NCBI GenBank assembly: GCA_963849325.1
Contig: CAWKHF010000009.1
Coordinates: 320,001 to 384,000 of the forward strand
DNA: 64,000 nucleotides
Reading direction: 5' to 3'
From: an uncultured Planctomycetota bacterium
GTDB taxonomy: Bacteria > Planctomycetota > Planctomycetia > Gemmatales > Gemmataceae
Made by a program: the position numbers and the translations under genes. How positions within the stretch are numbered: position 1 is the first letter of the stretch; every line of letters begins with the position of its first letter. Positions 2,028 through 17,835 of the stretch are shown piece after piece. Under the pieces are notes generated by a model, which saw only the letters and a list, made by a program, of their open reading frames with translations, did no database searches and had not been told where the DNA came from.

Positions 2028-2822
2028 CTGTAGAGTCGGCCGAGCACTGCTGAGGAAGTGCAGCACCAGGCGATTGGTCAGCCGCGGTCTCTCCATCTGT
2101 GGGGCGTGGCCGCAGCGCGGGATCGACAGGTAGTGTCCCTGTGGCAGCAACGTCGCCACTTCCGCCGCCTGCCGAGGATCGACGATTTGGTCCTCGCGTC
2201 CGCTGACCAGCAGCGTCGGCTGCGACAGTTCGGCCATCCGATCGCGGACGGAGTGAGCCATCGTGCCGCGCACCGTGCGCAGCAACCCCGTCCGCCAGCG
2301 GCGGTTGGCGAACTGGCGCCGGTAGTAGATCAGCAAGCGCGGGTCCACTCGGCTGGTGTCGTAAAAGACGCTTTCGATCAGCGAACGCAGGTCGTGGCGG
2401 CGCATGCCCTCGACGAGGGGTAGGCGCTCTTCATCGCCCATTCCGGAGGGACAAAGGAGTACAAGTCGAGTGACGCGCTCGGGATAGCGCACCGCGTACT
2501 CGACGGCGATCTTGCCGCCGAGGCTCGCCGCGACCAGGTGATAGGGCGGCGTCTGCACGAACGATTCGAGATACTGATGCAGTTGCTCGACCAGGTAGTC
2601 GATGCTGATAGGCCGTCCCTGGTCGATGCGCTGGTGCAGGGCCGGGCCGTCGTAGACGAGCAGGTTGGGCAGGTAGACGTCGAAGTGACGCCGCCAGAAG
2701 GGGACATTGCGGAACCAGCTCTCCGCCTGCTCGGCCAGTCCGTTGAGGAGGACGAGCGGTTGCCGCCGGACGTAGGGATGGACCTGGAAGCGCGCCAGCC
2801 AGGTTCGCCAGGGTGCGGCCAC
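2016..2822 (-). CDS. alpha/beta hydrolase
   Basis: ASLGG nucleophile elbow, G..D, GH.PQ.E; GTG start after GGAGGT. Confidence 0.85.
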   Translation of the reverse strand: MAAPWRTWLARFQVHPYVRRQPLVLLNGLAEQAESWFRNVPFWRRHFDVYLPNLLVYDGPALHQRIDQGRPISIDYLVEQLHQYLESFVQTPPYHLVAASLGGKIAVEYAVRYPERVTRLVLLCPSGMGDEERLPLVEGMRRHDLRSLIESVFYDTSRVDPRLLIYYRRQFANRRWRTGLLRTVRGTMAHSVRDRMAELSQPTLLVSGREDQIVDPRQAAEVATLLPQGHYLSIPRCGHAPQMERPRLTNRLVLHFLSSARPTLQMTR

Positions 2823-3015: not shown

Positions 3016-3977
3016 ATGACTGGACCGTCCGATGTTCTGTGTGCGGGCATCATCGTCGCCGATCACGTCAGCTCCCCGATTTCGCACGTGCCGGACCCTG
3101 GCGAGCTGGTTCTGGCCGATCAACTTTTGTTGACCATCGGCGGCTGCGCCGCCAACGTGGCCGTGGACCTGGTCAAGCTCGGCGTATCGGCGGCGGTGGT
3201 CGGCCGCGTCGGCGGCGACGTCTTCGGTCGTGTCGTCGCCGACATGCTGCGCGAACGTCAGGTCGATGTCTCCGCCCTGGGGGTCAGTACGGACCTGGAT
3301 ACCAGCCAGACGCTGATCGTGAACGTGGCCGGACAGGACCGTCGTTTCATCCACACCTTCGGGGCCAATGGCGCTTTCGGGGCCTCCGACATCCCGCTGG
3401 ATCGCGTGGCGACGTGCCGCGTGCTGTACCTGGGCGGCTATCTGCTGATGGGCAACGTTCATCCGGAAGAGTTGATTCCCGTGTTCGCGGCGGCGCGCGC
3501 GCCGGGGCAAAGACGGTGCTCGACGTGGTCACGCCTGGCCCGGCCGATTACCTGCCGCGCTTGCAGAAGCTATTGCCTCATGTCGATGTCTTTCTGCCGA
3601 ACAACCACGAGGCGGAGTTAATTACCGGCGAGAAGGACGCACTGCGGCAAGCTGAGCGCTTCCATCAGATGGGAGCGCAGACGGTCATCATCACGATGGG
3701 CGATCAAGGTTCGGTACTGGTGGGGCAGGGGGTGCGATTGCGGGCAGAGACGTATCGGATGCCGTTCGTGGACGGCACCGGCGGCGGGGACGCTTTCGCC
3801 GCCGGCTACATCGACGGACTGCTTCGCGGGCTGGACGCGGAGGGGTGTTTGCGCATCGGCAGTGCGGTCGGAGCCAGCTGCGTCCGCGCCATCGGCACGA
3901 CGACCGGCGTGTTCACACGGGCGGAACTGGAGGCGTTCGTGTCTGCGAATCCGCTGCGGATCGAGCGGATACAATAA
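3016..3977 (+). CDS. PfkB/ribokinase family carbohydrate kinase (frameshift near 3500)
   Basis: GG.AANVA, VGGD.FG, N..EA and DGTGGGDAF motifs split over two frames. Confidence 0.85.
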
Positions 3978-4014
3978 CCACAACGCACAGGGTCGTTGAT
4001 CGGAGGTGATTCAC

Positions 4015-4761
4015 ATGCCCATCCATGATTGGCGATTGGTTGATGCGGGAATCTTCCACCATTTCCATCACTCGTGGATTGAGGAGATCCAGCGGGCATT
4101 GAACCGCGGTTTATTGCCGCCGGAGTATTATGCACTCTCCGAACAAATCGCGGGCGGTCTGGGACCGGATGTCCTGACCCTTCAAAGACCTGGAACCGAG
4201 TCCGTTTCCCTCGATGATCCTCGTGGAGGAGTGGCCGTGACAGTCCTTCCTCCGAAGGCGCGGTTCCGCGCTCGCGCCGAGCCGGACCTCTACGCGGCCA
4301 AGGCCAAGACCGTCGTCATTCGCCACCGGAGCAACCACCGGATCATCGCCATGGTGGAGCTAGTCTCTCCCGGCAACAAAAACAACCGGCATGGTATCCG
4401 CGCGTTCGTCGAGAAGGCCGTGGCCGCACTGCGGGCTGGCATCCATCTCCTGATGGTGGACCTGTTTCCACCGGGGCCGCGCGATCCCCAGGGCATCCAC
4501 AAGGCGATCTGGGATGAACTGGTCGAAAATGACTTCCGTCTTCCCGACGACAAGCCGCTGACCCTGGTGGCCTACAGCGCCGACCAGTTTCCCGAGGCGT
4601 TCATCGAGCCGGTGGCCGTTGGCGATCCTCTGCCGGACATGCCCGTGTTCTTAACTCCCGACGTTTACATCCCGACGCCACTCGACGCAACCTACCGTGC
4701 GGCCTGGGATGCCTTTCCTTCTTTTTGGCGCGATGTCCTGGGCCATTCGGGTGGGGTGTAA
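4015..4761 (+). CDS. DUF4058 family (PD-(D/E)XK-like) protein
   Basis: MPIHDW..V.AGIFHHFH, PDV and ELVSPGNK, typical of planctomycete DUF4058. Confidence 0.8.
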   Translation: MPIHDWRLVDAGIFHHFHHSWIEEIQRALNRGLLPPEYYALSEQIAGGLGPDVLTLQRPGTESVSLDDPRGGVAVTVLPPKARFRARAEPDLYAAKAKTVVIRHRSNHRIIAMVELVSPGNKNNRHGIRAFVEKAVAALRAGIHLLMVDLFPPGPRDPQGIHKAIWDELVENDFRLPDDKPLTLVAYSADQFPEAFIEPVAVGDPLPDMPVFLTPDVYIPTPLDATYRAAWDAFPSFWRDVLGHSGGV

Positions 4762-13343: not shown

Positions 13344-13410
13344 CCGCCCGACAGCATGGACGCTGTTGCGACCAGGCTTCCTACGACAAACAAGAGAGAC
13401 GAGTGCAAGG

Positions 13411-15263
13411 ATGCATCAAACTCTCCCGATCGTGATAGGTCCGTATCGGATACTGGAGCCGCTCGGCGCGGCGGCATGGGGCACGTTTACAAGGCCGAGC
13501 ACCGGCTGATGAAGCGCGTGGTCGCGTTGAAGATTGCCAGTCGAGTGCGGCACGGAGCGCGTGGCTCGGCCGTGCGGAAGCGTTTTCGCCGCGAGGTGGA
13601 AGCGGCCGGCCGGCTCCATCATCCCGGCATCGTCTCGGCCTACGATGCCGGCGAAGTGCGCGGCCGGCTCTACCTGGCGATGGAGTACGTCGAGGGGATC
13701 GACCTCGAACGACTGGTGGAAGAGAGCGGGCCGCTTTCGGTTGATCTCGCGTGCGAAATCGTGCGGCAGACGGCGGAGGCGCTGCATCATGCGCACGAGC
13801 GCGGCCTGCTTCACCGCGACATCAAACCCTCCAATCTCATGCTCGCCGCACCGGGCGTCACCGTGAAACTGCTCGATCTCGGACTGGCCCGGCTGGCGCA
13901 TCCCTCTTTCCCAGAAGAGGAGGAGGCGGCAGACGATCCGCTGTGCGGCACGCCGGATTTCATGGCCCCCGAATGGGGCCGCGACGTACAGCCGGCGGAC
14001 GTGCGCGGCGATCTGTACAGTCTGGGTTGCACCTTCTATTTCCTGCTCACCGGCCAGGTGCCTTATCCCGGCGGCAGCGGTACGGAAAAACTATTGCGTC
14101 ACAGCCTCGACGCGCCAGCGCCATTGCGGCAGGTGCGGCCGGAGACGCCGCCGGCTGTCGTCGAGGTCGTCGAGCGTTTGATGGCCCGCGATCTGGAGGA
14201 TCGCTATCCGACGGCGGCCGCGGTCGCCGCTGCCATCGCAGCCATCCACGACCCCAAATCGGATCGAGACGGCATTGCCGGCGCGGTGCAGCCGACGAAT
14301 GCAGCTCGACGCATGGTCTCGTCTCGATTCGCCATTGCGGCGCTTGTTGCCGTCTTGCTCGGGGTAGGGGCGGCCGCCGGGGCGCGACGGGTGGTCGAGA
14401 AACCTGTCGCGGCAACAGCGCAAGCGAGGACGTTCGCGCCGTCGTTTCGGATCGAAGGTCGAGAGGAAGGGTTTCCTTCGCTGGCGCAGGCGATTGCCGC
14501 CGCACGCGATGGCGATGTAGTGAGCGTGCATGGCTCCGGCCCGTTCGTCACGGCATCGCTCAATTGTCGGGGCAAAGCCTTGACGGTGCGAGCGGCGCAG
14601 GGAGTGCGGCCGCGGCTGGAGCGGAAACCGACCGGCGATCCCTCGCGCGCGCTCTTCCACACGGATCGGGCCTTGACCCTGGAAGGACTGGACCTGGTCG
14701 TCGCCGACAACGCGCCGATGATCTGCTGCGAAGGAGCGCCTTTGCACCTGACGGACTGCCGGTTGACGACCGGCGCCGATGGCGTGGCCGTCATCGCCCG
14801 AGCCGCCTCCGAGGTGGTCGTGTGCGGTTGCCGCATCGATGCCGGGGCCGTCGGGCTTTCCGTGGAGGCCGGCCAGGGTTCGATGTGCCGCGTTCACGTG
14901 CGCGAGAGCCGGATCACCATCCGAGCGAAGATGGGGGTGGCCCTGTCGTTGTGGGCGTCAGAGGTGCCGCAGCCGACGCCGGTTGAGCTGGAGTTGGAAG
15001 GCAATACCATTCAGGCGGGGCGGACAGCGGCCCTGCGTGCCTTGCCGGCGGGCCTGGCGATCCGGGCTCGCGGCAACCGTTTCACGTTCCACACGGCCCT
15101 GCTCAGCTATACGGGATACGCGGACCCGGACGCCTGGCGGCGGAACACGGCCTGGGCCGGCGGCGACAACGCCTATGAGGGACCGCCATCCTGGTTGTGG
15201 GTCGAGGGACAGCCGGTGCCCCTCGCCACGGTGCCGATGTCCGTCCCCACGAGCCCGGGATGA
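13411..15263 (+). CDS. Hanks-type Ser/Thr protein kinase with TM segment and beta-helix-like extracellular domain (frameshift near 13468)
   Basis: MHQTLPIVIGPYRILEPLG in another frame joins GGMGHVYKA; HRDIKPSN, DLGLA, GTPDFMAPE. Confidence 0.88.
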
Positions 15264-15267
15264 CAAA

Positions 15268-15529
15268 CCTCCGGATAATAGGAAAGGTGCAGTAAGGTGC
15301 ACCGATCCCGTTATTCGGAGGAATGAGCGGGGCAAACCTTGCCATACCGGATTATTTACCGGCCTCGGATGGTGACGGCTTCGTGCGTTGTCTTGTCGCC
15401 GTAAGCCGCGGGATGGACGGGCTTTTCGCTCGTTTCGTCCCTTCGGCAGAGCAGCCCTCTGGCCGAAATGCTCGACCAGAGCTGTCTCTTTGCGTCACCG
15501 CCTCACGACGGTTTTGCCTTTTCGAGGAT
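15268..15529 (-). repeat. ~262-nt riboswitch-headed unit, copy B
   Basis: homologous to 16380-16642; the 15316-15422 core matches 16431-16535 at about 89/107 by hand alignment. Confidence 0.85.
15437..15529 (-). ncRNA. c-di-GMP-I (GEMM) riboswitch aptamer, copy B
   Basis: TCCTCG-AAAAGGCAAA-ACCGTC-GTGA-GGCGGT-GACGCAAAG...CTGCCGAAGGGA; P1, GNRA-capped P2 and long P3. Confidence 0.8.
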
Positions 15530-15583
15530 AATCGTCAGTCAATCGCCGTAAATGCCTTAACCGCCTAGAGGCAAGGCGTTTGC

Positions 15584-15592
15584 AGTTTACCA
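15584..15592 (-). promoter_or_regulatory. extended -10 promoter for copy B
   Basis: TGnTAAACT about 55 nt upstream of the aptamer. Confidence 0.4.
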
Positions 15593-15669
15593 AGCATCAC
15601 ACAGAAGGCACGCTTTCCCACGGTCTTGTACAGCATGCCGTGCCCATTCCGTGCCCTCCTGGTGGCCTC

Positions 15670-16185
15670 TCAGGACACGGACTTCCAAGTGTGGCGATGG
15701 ACGACCGCGAAGACCGTTCCGATGGCGATGCCGTACTTTTTTGCCAAGGCGGGCATACTCATTCTCCCAGCGACTTTTCTGATTTGCCTTACCGTGGCTT
15801 CGTTTAGTCTCGATGACCAGTGTTTCTCGCCTGCTTTTGCGTAGGGCATCGACCAATAATGCCGCATGTTCCCAGATCGGTCAGTGTATTCAAGGTTCTT
15901 CACCCCGTTGTGCGAACGCACGCCGTCTTTGTGGTTGACGTGAACGTCTGGATCGACGGGACCGAGAAAAGCGGCGGCTACCAGGCGGTGAACCTTCCGG
16001 TTGATCGGCTTCCCGTGGCGGGAGAGGCGCACGATCCGGTAGCCGTGGCCGTTGTCCCGGGGGGTGAGGATGCGAGGGAGCTTATCGGGATTAGACGGCA
16101 AGCGACGGACTCTTCCGAGATTGCTTACTTCGTAAATCCCCTCGAATTCAGCGACGGGCTTCCATTGCTCCACGGAATCGTCCAT
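15670..16185 (-). CDS. NUMOD4-HNH homing-endonuclease-like protein with C-terminal HTH (171 aa)
   Basis: EQWKPV..FEG.YEVSNLGRVR, VHRLVA.AF, VNHKDG...N...NLEY; AGGAGG RBS. Confidence 0.9.
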   Translation of the reverse strand: MDDSVEQWKPVAEFEGIYEVSNLGRVRRLPSNPDKLPRILTPRDNGHGYRIVRLSRHGKPINRKVHRLVAAAFLGPVDPDVHVNHKDGVRSHNGVKNLEYTDRSGNMRHYWSMPYAKAGEKHWSSRLNEATVRQIRKVAGRMSMPALAKKYGIAIGTVFAVVHRHTWKSVS

Positions 16186-16379
16186 GAGGCTTCCTCCTTG
16201 CAAGTAGGAGAAAGCCTAGAAGAATGTCCCTTTACGGCAAGTGGAGCGGCGCAGAATCTTTTGGAGCTTGGTCTTGGATTCTTTCAGCGTTTTAACAAGG
16301 CGTTTCTGCTTACGTCGATGGTGGTGAAATAGCAGCTCTTGGATTTACGCCAGCAGATGTCGGATGTGCGAGGTATGGT

Positions 16380-16642
16380 TTCCTCCGGGGGAGAGGGCCG
16401 GGAAGGTATACCGTACCCTACATCATTATACGGAGGAAAGAGCAGAGCAAACCTCGCCATACCGGATTTTTTCCGGCCCCGGATCGAAGCGACTTCGTGC
16501 GTCATCCTGTCGCCGTAAGTCGAGGATGGACGGGCACTTCGCCACGATCCACCCTTTCGGTAGCTCGGCCGACACAGGGATGATTCCCCAAGTCCCGGAG
16601 CTTTGCGTCCCACGGTTTCCCGTGGTTTGCCTTTTCGAGGAT
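16380..16642 (-). repeat. ~263-nt riboswitch-headed unit, copy A
   Basis: direct repeat of 15268-15529, closed by TTCCTCCG...CGGAGGAA hairpin. Confidence 0.85.
16551..16642 (-). ncRNA. c-di-GMP-I (GEMM) riboswitch aptamer, copy A
   Basis: GAAAAGGCAAACCACGG-GAAA-CCGTGGGACGCAAAGCTCCGG...CCGAGCTACCGAA; canonical G20/C92-equivalent positions. Confidence 0.9.
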
Positions 16643-16724
16643 GAAAGGCGTTGCGATCCGAGCGCGACAGCGAGGTTCGCCCCCGAAAGCTGCCACCAAA
16701 GCTGGCCGCTTCGTTTGCTGCACA

Positions 16725-16753
16725 ACTGTAGTACGCGATCGCAAGGCAAGCAA
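16725..16753 (-). promoter_or_regulatory. sigma-70-like promoter for copy A
   Basis: TTGCTT-N17-TACAGT. Confidence 0.5.
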
Positions 16754-16782
16754 ACCGCGTCTCCGCTTTCCCCTGTCGGTAT

Positions 16783-17806
16783 TCAAGCCGCCGACGCATC
16801 GCGCCCGGGACGGCCGACGTAGGCGTTTCGCGCCGCGCCCTCTCGCCCCATCGGCACCGCCGCCAGGTCCGGCGAGGATTCCTTGAGCAGATACAGCGGC
16901 CGAACCTTGACCTGCTCGTAAATCCGACCGACGTATTCGCCGACGATGCCGAGACAGCCGAGGATGGCGCCTCCCATCAGGAACAGGGCGGCCAGCACGA
17001 GCGAATCTCCTCCGATGCTTGCGCCGAACAGCGCCCGCATCAGCAGGACCATGCCGTGTCCGGCACCGAGCAGCGCGAACAGCCCTCCCAGCACAAACGA
17101 AAGCCGCAGCGGCAGCTTGGAGAACGAAAGCATGGCATCGACGGCCAGGGCCAGCATGCGGCGCAGCGTGTACTTGGTGACACCGGCGCCTCGGCTGGCG
17201 GGGTGAAACGCCACCGTCGTCGTGCGAAAGCCCAGCCAGTTGACCATGCCGCGTAGAAACCGGTGCTTCTCGTGCAGCCGCAGCAGGCTGTCGATGGCCT
17301 TGCGCGACAGCAGCCGATAGTCCGACGCCGCCGAGCTGACCGGCGTGTCGCTCAACCAGCGCATCACCATGTTGAAGGCGCGCGACGACAGGCGCTTGAA
17401 GGGGCTGAGGCGCGGATCGTCCTCGCGGAAAGTCAGCACGATGTCGTGTCCCCGGCGCCACTGTTCCAGCAGAGCGGGGATGAGATTGGGCGGATGCTGC
17501 AAGTCGCTGTCGAGGGTGATGACCACGTCGCCGCGCGGCGTGTTCCATGCCGGCCGTCAGGGCCGCCTGCTGGCCGAAATTGCGGCTGAAGGACAGGTAG
17601 CGAATACGCGGGTCGGCGGCGGCCAGGCGGCGCACGAAATCGAGGGTGCCGTCGCGGGAGCCGTCATCGACGTACAGGATCTCGATGTCATACTCGGCTT
17701 CGAGGGGGGCCAGGGCGGCGCACAGTTCCTGGTGGAAGTGGGGCAGCACTTCCTCCTCCTCGAAGGCGGGGCAGACGATGCTCAGCTTGCAAACAGGCGC
17801 GGCCAT
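16783..17806 (-). CDS. GT2 polyprenol-phosphate glycosyltransferase (GtrB/ArnC-like; frameshift near 17535)
   Basis: SIVCPAF.EE, VDDGSRD, SRNFGQQ.A, D.DLQHPP, two C-terminal TMs, GEYVGRIY.QVK.RP.Y. Confidence 0.9.
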
Positions 17807-17835
17807 TTCCTTCTCCGTTCTAAGCCGGCTCCCCT

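Follow-up and report, generated by a model that had tools for sequence, protein, structure and literature searches.

The current study concerns a window of 64,000 nucleotides (nt), meaning the whole stretch of DNA analysed, from an uncultured bacterium of the planctomycete family Gemmataceae (GenBank assembly GCA_963849325.1, contig CAWKHF010000009.1, positions 320,001 to 384,000 of the forward strand), and in particular its positions 15,268 to 16,753. Two diverged units with riboswitch aptamers of class I for cyclic diguanosine monophosphate (c-di-GMP-I), here called units A and B, lie on both sides of a gene encoding an endonuclease with NUMOD4 and HNH domains. On the minus strand, in the 5′ to 3′ direction, a glycosyltransferase gene ends before unit A, which is followed by a 195-nt spacer, the HNH gene, unit B and finally the terminal part of a convergent kinase gene. 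The guanine and cytosine (GC) content is 52-60% across 15300-16650, compared with 65-69% outside. The features of the locus and the evidence for each of them are as follows.

16725..16753, minus strand: promoter-like block (TTGCTT, 17 nt, TACAGT), kept upstream of full-length copies in the alignments.
16643..16722, minus strand: predicted 5′ domain of the RNA, with hairpin H1 and the 5′ strands of the closing helix (17 base pairs, bp; 16683-16667) and of helix LR3 (16662-16654); covariation and minimum free energy (MFE) fold.
16556..16641, minus strand: unit A c-di-GMP-I aptamer; Rfam RF01051, 76.5 bits.
16440..16555, minus strand: unit A core, with helices C1, C2 and C3, the LR3 3′ strand and the closing-helix 3′ strand (16460-16444), then a pyrimidine/U-rich tract; covariance model R1 (144 bits), covariation and fold.
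16382..16436, minus strand: unit A CCTCCG...CCGGAGG hairpin (stem strands CCTCCG 16436-16431 and CCGGAGG 16388-16382, from the sequence), read as putative integrase leader and P′ arm; absent from most loci.
16239..16376, minus strand: truncated remnant of a tyrosine integrase N-terminus, with about residues 9-54 distributed over two frames; tblastn.
15670..16185, minus strand: intact NUMOD4-HNH_3 endonuclease gene of 171 amino acids (aa) with its own AAGGAGG ribosome-binding site; Pfam.
15530..15669, minus strand: putative P arm, at the far end of the element, where two GGGCACGG direct repeats (15656-15649 and 15645-15638) are spaced 11 nt apart; sequence, and alignment with loci L051, L053 and L080.
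15441..15529, minus strand: unit B aptamer, beginning exactly at an ATCCTCG boundary; Rfam RF03167, 59.8 bits.
15329..15440, minus strand: unit B core, whose closing-helix 3′ strand (15345-15329) is without a 5′ partner; model R1, 134.5 bits.
15268..15321, minus strand: unit B hairpin (stem strands 15321-15316 and 15274-15268) with two TGCACCTT repeats (15301-15294 and 15291-15284), read as a putative P′-type scar of an older element; sequence, and a terminator-like scan that matches the inner stem.

An earlier note on this DNA had described two c-di-GMP-I aptamers, and this was borne out by a covariance search of Rfam, in which both pass the curated cut-offs. The unit A aptamer belongs to c-di-GMP-I (76.5 bits for a cut-off of 35), and that of unit B (15441-15527) to the variant class c-di-GMP-I-GGC (59.8 bits for a cut-off of 59), whose ligand is, to our knowledge, unsettled. 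Both units carry the canonical A where the GGC consensus has a G (..CGCGAAg..). Besides, double changes are numerous in the P2 and P3 stems, both in a set of 27 and in one of 60 sequences, and the GACGCAAAG stretch of the aptamer is kept in nearly all of the 60 family members aligned. Beyond the aptamers, a permissive Rfam scan of 15100-16800 (E-values up to 10) gave two matches only, both at chance level (E 3.3 and 3.6). Identity between the two units amounts to 58/91 positions for the aptamer, 69/94 for the core, 41/52 for the 3′ part and 32/71 for the 60 nt upstream, in agreement with the earlier observation that the core is better kept than the aptamer stems. The CCTCCG...CGGAGG hairpins are likewise present in both units, and Pfam supports the NUMOD4 (2.5e-13) and HNH_3 (8.1e-9) domains of the gene between them. 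Three further Rfam-passing c-di-GMP-I aptamers occur in the genome of the window (G000) at C4:413940-414033, C1:365585-365681 and C1:415386-415460, all of them without the core.

Among relatives of unit A, about 110 nt upstream of the aptamer are also conserved, comprising a TTGCnn-17-TAgaGT block and a domain of about 80 nt. The units had thus first been drawn too small, since the unit A aptamer is preceded by these 80 nt of the same unit. On this comparative evidence, unit A is the 3′ two-thirds of a predicted single-copy structured RNA of about 280 nt, with its gene at about 16722-16440 on the minus strand. The idea that the aptamer is one domain of a larger RNA therefore stands, this RNA being conserved and covarying. 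Unit B has no such 5′ domain upstream.

The alignment comprises 60 full-length copies; seven copies without the 5′ domain, three cut by contig ends, one without the anchor motif and ten duplicates were left out. Covariation was assessed on a curated set of 54 pairs outside the aptamer, using five measures and, as controls, partners slid by 1-3 columns and 500 shuffles. In these 54 pairs, 90.4% of the cells are paired, versus 36-48% with slid partners, and the covariation score is 0.487 versus 0.08-0.13, while none of the 500 shuffles reaches any of the five measures. Double changes were observed in 16 of the 17 pairs of the closing helix, 8/8 of LR3, 10/11 of H1, 5/6 of C3 and 3/9 of C1. The 5′ domain is found to pair with the 3′ end through the 17-bp closing helix and the 8-bp LR3, which together enclose the aptamer and the core of about 105 nt. 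RNAalifold on the alignment also pairs the 5′ domain with the 3′ end, and unit A folded alone adopts a matching architecture (MFE of -132.6 kcal/mol, z = -5.3). Measured from the presumed start to where the closing helix ends, family members have a median length of 281 nt, and a T-run of at least four follows the closing helix within 14 nt in 37/60 members. A GGTTTGC segment that the earlier note had paired with the GCAAACC of the aptamer as a plausible switch occurs in 2/60 members only; it is part of the closing-helix 3′ strand and covaries with the 5′ domain, so that a different pairing partner replaces the one first suggested. A small conserved open reading frame (ORF) in the core (ATGGCGAGG...) was considered and rejected, its ATG not being kept across the family in the alignments.

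The 16725..16753 block is probably the promoter of this RNA, judging from its conservation; a strict sigma-70 scan of 15150-16850 called no promoter, this block included. The promoter that had been placed before unit B was not recovered: a consensus scan gave 0 sites there, and the block kept in the 60 relatives stands before unit A only.

In the 8.16-Mb genome of the window the core is present in only two copies, the other 11 of 13 BLAST matches having E-values above 2. BLAST found the core in 9/61 related genomes. A degenerate core pattern matched 38 genome contigs, 19 of them real and labelled as Gemmataceae, Gemmatales or Planctomycetota metagenome-assembled genomes, and 31 metagenome contigs, 15 of them real; the remaining 19/38 and 16/31 were dropped as chance matches in unrelated taxa, and the pattern had no match on viral contigs. 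With the core-only covariance model R1, the RNA was detected in 83/151 sampled genomes of the family, distributed over 57/90 genera, and it is single-copy in all but five of the genomes that carry it. Outside the family, the model matches 1/150 genomes of the phylum, weakly; this sole match (L173, G325:C35:9067-9260) scores 30 bits with an E-value of 7.5e-6. An aptamer that passes the Rfam cut-offs abuts the core in 20/20 divergent loci, with RF03167 as the best model in 14 and RF01051 in 6.

No Rfam family covers the flanks of the RNA at E-values up to 10. A literature search, to which supplementary files were external, gave no description of the RNA or of a riboswitch RNA as an attachment site, and the passages available from PMC12452182 merely list class names. 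Based on its conservation and covariation, the RNA is thus a well-supported candidate for an undescribed structured family, with a new predicted architecture around a c-di-GMP-I aptamer.

Two copies of the RNA are present in five of the sampled family genomes. In G022, G128 and G066, one copy is full-length and directly followed by a tyrosine integrase gene, and the other has no 5′ domain and begins at ATCCTCG; the DNA upstream of the truncated copies is unrelated, with an identity of about 50%. Together with the window genome, the integrase-linked copy is full-length and the other one headless in 4/4 two-copy genomes with an integrase or a remnant of it. The 5′ boundary ATCCTCG is common to unit B, L051, L053, L080 and L168, and the run of identity between the copies from this boundary is 17, 97, 17 and 13 nt long in the four genome pairs. 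In L034, L057, L061 and L082 the full copy is immediately followed by an integrase ORF; in L047 the distance is about 300 nt, and L031 has a remnant. The L061 integrase matches PF00589 (1.8e-14), and the intact integrases match phrog_1 (9.1e-31; for L047, 4.7e-35). When the L057 integrase was compared by tblastn with the whole window, the two best matches were 16352-16239 (E 6.3e-4) and 16392-16243 (E 0.002). Elsewhere in the genome of the window, at G000:C2:659964-660944 and five further positions, there are six tyrosine recombinase genes, the best of them only 32% identical to the L061 integrase, indicating that no intact copy of the integrase of the element is present in this genome.

These comparisons show a duplication with the geometry of the left and right attachment sites (attL and attR) of a tyrosine-integrase element targeting the RNA gene. 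The shared ATCCTCG boundary, the integrase after the full copy and the remnant in the window support that units A and B are the putative attL and attR of a decayed element. The crossover most likely took place in the invariant ...CCTTTCATCCTCGAAAGGGCAAA stretch. The element would recombine within this stretch (...CCTTTCATCCTCGAAAGGGCAAA / ATCCTCGAAAGGGCAAA) and carry its own copy of everything 3′ of the crossover, followed by the hairpin and the integrase gene. Integration would then have made unit A out of the resident promoter and 5′ domain and the replacement 3′ part, with the integrase adjoining, and the former 3′ part would have been displaced downstream, where it persists without its head as unit B. 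The element would subsequently have decayed to about 1.1 kb, leaving an integrase stump of 50 codons, the intact HNH gene and the far arm, and an exchange between the two copies would have made unit A a mosaic. We consider it probable that this explanation holds as a whole, that is, a family-specific structured RNA gene with a decayed integrative element, and an HNH gene that has no functional tie to the RNA.

Two direct copies 1.1 kb apart could also result from a plain tandem duplication by unequal recombination, with the chance insertion of a free-standing HNH gene and no integrase event at all. The mosaic pattern of the copies, which indicates sequence exchange between them, would fit such an origin, and the integrase stump is short and its E-values are modest. 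However, the exact 5′ boundary is common to truncated copies from five genomes or contigs, integrase genes follow directly after the full copy in five other loci, and the stump in the window is found at the expected place and is the best match in 64 kb. Considering also the paired repeats in both arms and the phage genes in the G022 element, both described below, we regard a tandem duplication as improbable.

The element in G022 has a YopX gene and an HNH gene beside its integrase, and DpdA, Thg1-like and RusA-like genes upstream of the truncated copy; no capsid or terminase gene was seen within 11 kb. Of phage-type genes, the insert of the window has HNH alone. Its HNH gene (L172, G022:C51, 2895-3665, plus strand; phrog_3377, 1.6e-40, and phrog_374) adjoins the integrase gene (3595-4683, minus strand), and an HNH gene beside the integrase may be a recurring feature of these elements. 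The DpdA-like (PF23859, 5.4e-73) and Thg1-like (phrog_4717, 5e-76) genes, in L171 (G022:C182, 1733-3497), hint at a possible 7-deazaguanine modification of DNA in a planctomycete prophage. A second copy of the RNA with a degenerate aptamer was also observed in G175 (L035/L133, G175:C9), just downstream of an IS66-family transposase; the full copy of this genome is on another contig, with the hairpin and without an integrase.

From a reading of the tails, the CCTCCG...GGAGG hairpin is present in 21/67 non-redundant loci, and in the other 46 the RNA stops at a U-run immediately behind the closing helix. In loci with an intact integrase, its ATG is located 7-8 nt after the GGAGG of the hairpin. 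The hairpin loops hold paired repeats of about 8 nt, and a matching repeat type is found about 125 nt before the truncated copy. In G022, pairs of the GCACCTT type are present beside the integrase (L061) and in the far arm (L053). In the window, a CACGG-type motif is found in the unit A hairpin and two GGGCACGG at 15656-15638 before unit B. Paired repeats occupy the corresponding place in the aligned arms of L051, L053 and L080, and they are putative arm-type binding sites. Based on this distribution, the closing hairpins are best described as the predicted integrase leader and attachment arm, not as part of the conserved RNA. The TGCACCTT repeat type of the unit B hairpin is also present beside the integrase in L061 and L063, which suggests that this hairpin derives from an older, different element.

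The position of the integrase ATG 7-8 nt after the GGAGG in L061, L034 and L082 implies that the hairpin can mask the ribosome-binding site. This would be expected if the aptamer, core and hairpin were the own regulatory leader of the element, which would let integrase (here HNH) expression follow the c-di-GMP of the host and would borrow the host promoter and 5′ domain once integrated. The copy of the element always begins at the aptamer start, and in attL the integrase is directly downstream of the promoter of the host RNA. However, such elements usually carry the 3′ part of their target and thereby restore the gene, as for tRNA, tmRNA and icd, and the copy of the element lacks the 5′ strand of the closing helix, so the excised copy cannot fold like the host RNA. 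A leader belonging to the element is therefore, in our view, unlikely, and we hold to a host RNA gene used as integration target. We are similarly doubtful about a variant in which the RNA is a stand-alone, trans-acting c-di-GMP sensor and the phage integrase or HNH gene is read through from the c-di-GMP-gated host RNA, which would time excision or cleavage according to the second-messenger state of the host.

Different parts of unit A have different nearest relatives. Its 5′ domain is nearest to L058 and L074 (27/30 and 25/30; within the genus), the stretch from the aptamer to C2 is nearest to L017 and L018 (28-29 of 29-30), and C3 with the 3′ strand is nearest to unit B (22/24). The 3′ strands of units A and B both fit the resident 5′ strand, where L017 has four mismatches.

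Several observations weigh against the integration of an element as set out here. The closing helix of unit A is perfectly complementary, unlike what would be expected for a simple chimera, and for this reason a later exchange between units A and B has to be invoked, which may have been selected to keep the closing helix. The two copies are on different contigs in 3/4 of the paired genomes. In G066 the arm-repeat prediction failed, with no GCACGG pair before the truncated copy. A CCTCCG hairpin without any integrase is present in L032, L132, L134, L136 and L164, and the hairpin could therefore be an old optional terminator of the RNA and not DNA of the element. Moreover, the inserts in L030, L170 and L066 have no phage genes according to PHROG: a scan of the inserts of L170, L030, L066 and L047, covering 73 of 86 ORFs (13 ORFs of L063 were left out), gave no match apart from the L047 integrase, clpS and a single family without known function.

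The HNH protein belongs to phrog_59 (HNH endonuclease, 2.6e-43), and its gene is single-copy in the genome. A tblastn search with this protein over 103 loci gave matches only in the 5 that overlap the window, and the gene is absent from every other fetched RNA locus. HNH relatives were found in 0/8 genomes of the same genus and in 13/200 genomes of the family, with at most 42% identity, and none of the 11 fetched loci with a relative lies beside the RNA. The nearest relatives (63-77% identity) are full-length and located on short metagenome contigs, and a viral contig collection held no close relative. No match was obtained in Rfam, at E-values up to 10, to the HEARO/omega RNA of IscB, the HNH protein having 171 aa and no RuvC domain, or, around the HNH gene, to any group I intron family. 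Since the HNH gene is absent from other RNA loci and its relatives are found elsewhere, it is probably cargo or a remnant of the element, and its link to the RNA would be incidental.

The earlier note had raised the possibility of a second-messenger-controlled RNA-nuclease module, in which the c-di-GMP RNA would guide or activate the HNH protein or be cut by it, the units and the gene forming one functional unit. The units and the HNH gene are indeed closely linked on one strand, and the gene is intact, with a strong ribosome-binding site and full-length relatives. Besides, no U-run separates the unit A hairpin from the HNH gene, which makes read-through from the promoter of the RNA possible. 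Nevertheless, the co-occurrence check with the core covariance model and tblastn found the RNA and the HNH gene together nowhere beyond the window: no HNH relative is present at the other fetched RNA loci among the 103, the RNA is in 83/151 family genomes while HNH relatives are in 13/200 and in 0/8 of the genus at up to 42% identity, and the RNA stands beside 0/11 HNH-relative loci. In addition, the protein is a plain 171-aa NUMOD4+HNH_3 endonuclease and unit B is a headless copy. Hence, we consider such a module very improbable. The alternative offered in the same note, a selfish HNH element living in an RNA array, is partly retained: the HNH gene does sit in selfish DNA, but one complete RNA gene and one 5′-truncated copy do not constitute an array. 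The note had further stated that a 3′ core lacking covariation, together with homologous units never linked to HNH elsewhere, would imply duplicated leaders with a chance HNH insertion; the units elsewhere are indeed never linked to HNH, but the 3′ core does covary. Overall, the finding as first read is largely explained away, and it is the large RNA, not the nuclease, that is the point of interest.

The gene neighbourhood of the RNA gives indications of how it might work. Its left neighbours are conserved (YdjC-like, GT87 and then a family-2 glycosyltransferase, GT2, gene), and its right side is not. A clpS gene follows on the same strand 28-275 nt 3′ of the RNA in 7 loci, usually with a gene for a xylose-isomerase-like TIM-barrel protein, and is displaced from the RNA by 0.9-3.4 kb in 3 loci; in the genome of the window it is on another contig. 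As candidates for empty and disrupted sites, these two sets of loci are in keeping with an integrative element. Of 34 further loci analysed with Pfam, 18 have a co-directional gene as the nearest one supported, 9 have a convergent gene and 7 have no supported gene. The downstream genes thus vary among loci, which indicates that the RNA is not tied to one of them. In L163, a distant member, a short tandem repeat with units like GTTTTCAGTGTTCA was found just after the RNA end. In L159, an ORF with a ParE-type toxin domain (2262-2810, minus strand) lies between the RNA and an ABC transporter gene, and the near-identical L158 does not have this ORF.

We propose a theoretical scheme for the response of the RNA to its ligand. 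The (A)UCCU before the aptamer and the RUCCC of the core could each pair with the GGGRY stretch after the aptamer. The ligand would stabilise a short P1 helix, of (A)UCCU with GGGR(Y), in competition with core helix C1. P1 formation might compact the inner domains, so that the distant strands of the closing helix would meet just before the U-tract, and the closing helix would then act as a ligand-dependent terminator stem. The output would be a discrete RNA of about 280 nt or read-through downstream, into clpS where the neighbourhood is kept. We give this ligand-dependent termination about an even chance. Somewhat less likely, although still well worth considering, is constitutive termination, with the product acting as a stand-alone RNA sensor of c-di-GMP. 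Attenuation is favoured by the U-tract and the linkage to clpS; the convergent neighbours, the single copy and the restoration of the gene by the elements favour an RNA gene in its own right.

Ligand-dependent termination also meets with difficulties. The next gene is convergent in 9/27 of the further loci with a Pfam-supported neighbour, which argues against an obligatory role in cis, and a clear U-run after the closing helix is present in 37/60 members only. The proposed P1/C1 switch rests on invariant sequence, which is beyond the reach of covariation, and a competing local hairpin involving the closing-helix 5′ strand is weakly supported: as a candidate it was rejected, since it has 4-6 weak pairs and RNAalifold on the 5′ domain alone does not choose it. 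The pairing of a shorter CCGGGG:GCCCC terminator is possible, but on G-rich invariant columns.

GEMM-I switches are generally described as short 5′ leaders whose expression platform is local and short. The RNA described here resembles c-di-GMP-I riboswitches in its passing aptamers, the covariation of P2 and P3 and the U-tract at the RNA end. However, the aptamer is internal to a closed RNA of about 280 nt, with 17 + 8 bp between its 5′ domain and its 3′ end, and there is one copy per genome with its own promoter-like block and no conserved downstream gene. In Clostridioides difficile, an allosteric c-di-GMP-II riboswitch is fused to a group I ribozyme. The likeness lies in the joining of a c-di-GMP aptamer to a larger structured RNA, with the aptamer presumed to control how that RNA folds; here, the aptamer is of another class, no intron was matched and nothing suggests catalysis.

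Integrative elements and prophages are known to target the 3′ part of tRNA, tmRNA and icd genes and to carry a replacement copy. The element considered here is like the ones that target RNA genes in its adjoining tyrosine integrase, its RNA-gene target and a probable crossover in the most invariant stretch, as well as in the diverged 3′ copy that it supplies and the resulting complete attL copy and headless attR copy. It differs from them in that the target is a riboswitch-bearing RNA, which is not known as an attachment site, that the carried copy is long (about 260 nt) and includes the whole aptamer, and that in the window the element has decayed to 1.1 kb. The gene of the 4.5S RNA (ffs) is also reported as a target of such an element (PMC12540744).

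The HNH gene is comparable to free-standing phage endonucleases of the homing type with NUMOD4 and HNH_3 domains, with which it shares the domain pair, the size, the phage PHROG families and a location in low-GC foreign DNA. No intron or intein context is present here. The element in G022 likewise has an HNH gene beside its integrase, but the HNH proteins of G022 and the window belong to different PHROG families, and the window protein gave no tblastn match to the former.

These results point to an RNA of which more than half of the sampled genomes of one bacterial family have kept a single copy. A closing helix that served as a ligand-dependent terminator stem would couple sensor and termination in an unusual way; an RNA that acted alone would represent an undescribed kind of second-messenger sensor. 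As a putative target, this riboswitch-bearing RNA gene also joins the few RNA genes that integrative elements use for attachment. Integration of this type would account for duplicated aptamers beside phage nucleases, and calls for caution in reading neighbourhoods of a riboswitch and a nuclease as functional modules.

The genes on both sides of the locus in the window are the following.

13356..15263, plus strand: Ser/Thr protein kinase gene, convergent; Pfam Pkinase, 7.9e-45.
16789..17818, minus strand: GT2 gene, the upstream neighbour of the RNA gene, split over two frames; Pfam in two frames.

Because the kinase gene is convergent, unit B has no downstream gene on its own strand. By tblastn, the pieces of the GT2 gene extend over 17818-17537 and 17535-16789, with the frame split at about 17536. 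The clpS gene of the same genome, on another contig (G000:C12:1152256-1152569), is likewise split into two adjoining frames. Either the split GT2 and clpS genes are real pseudogenes or the splits result from insertion or deletion errors of the assembly, and in the latter case an error may also underlie the frameshift of the integrase stump.

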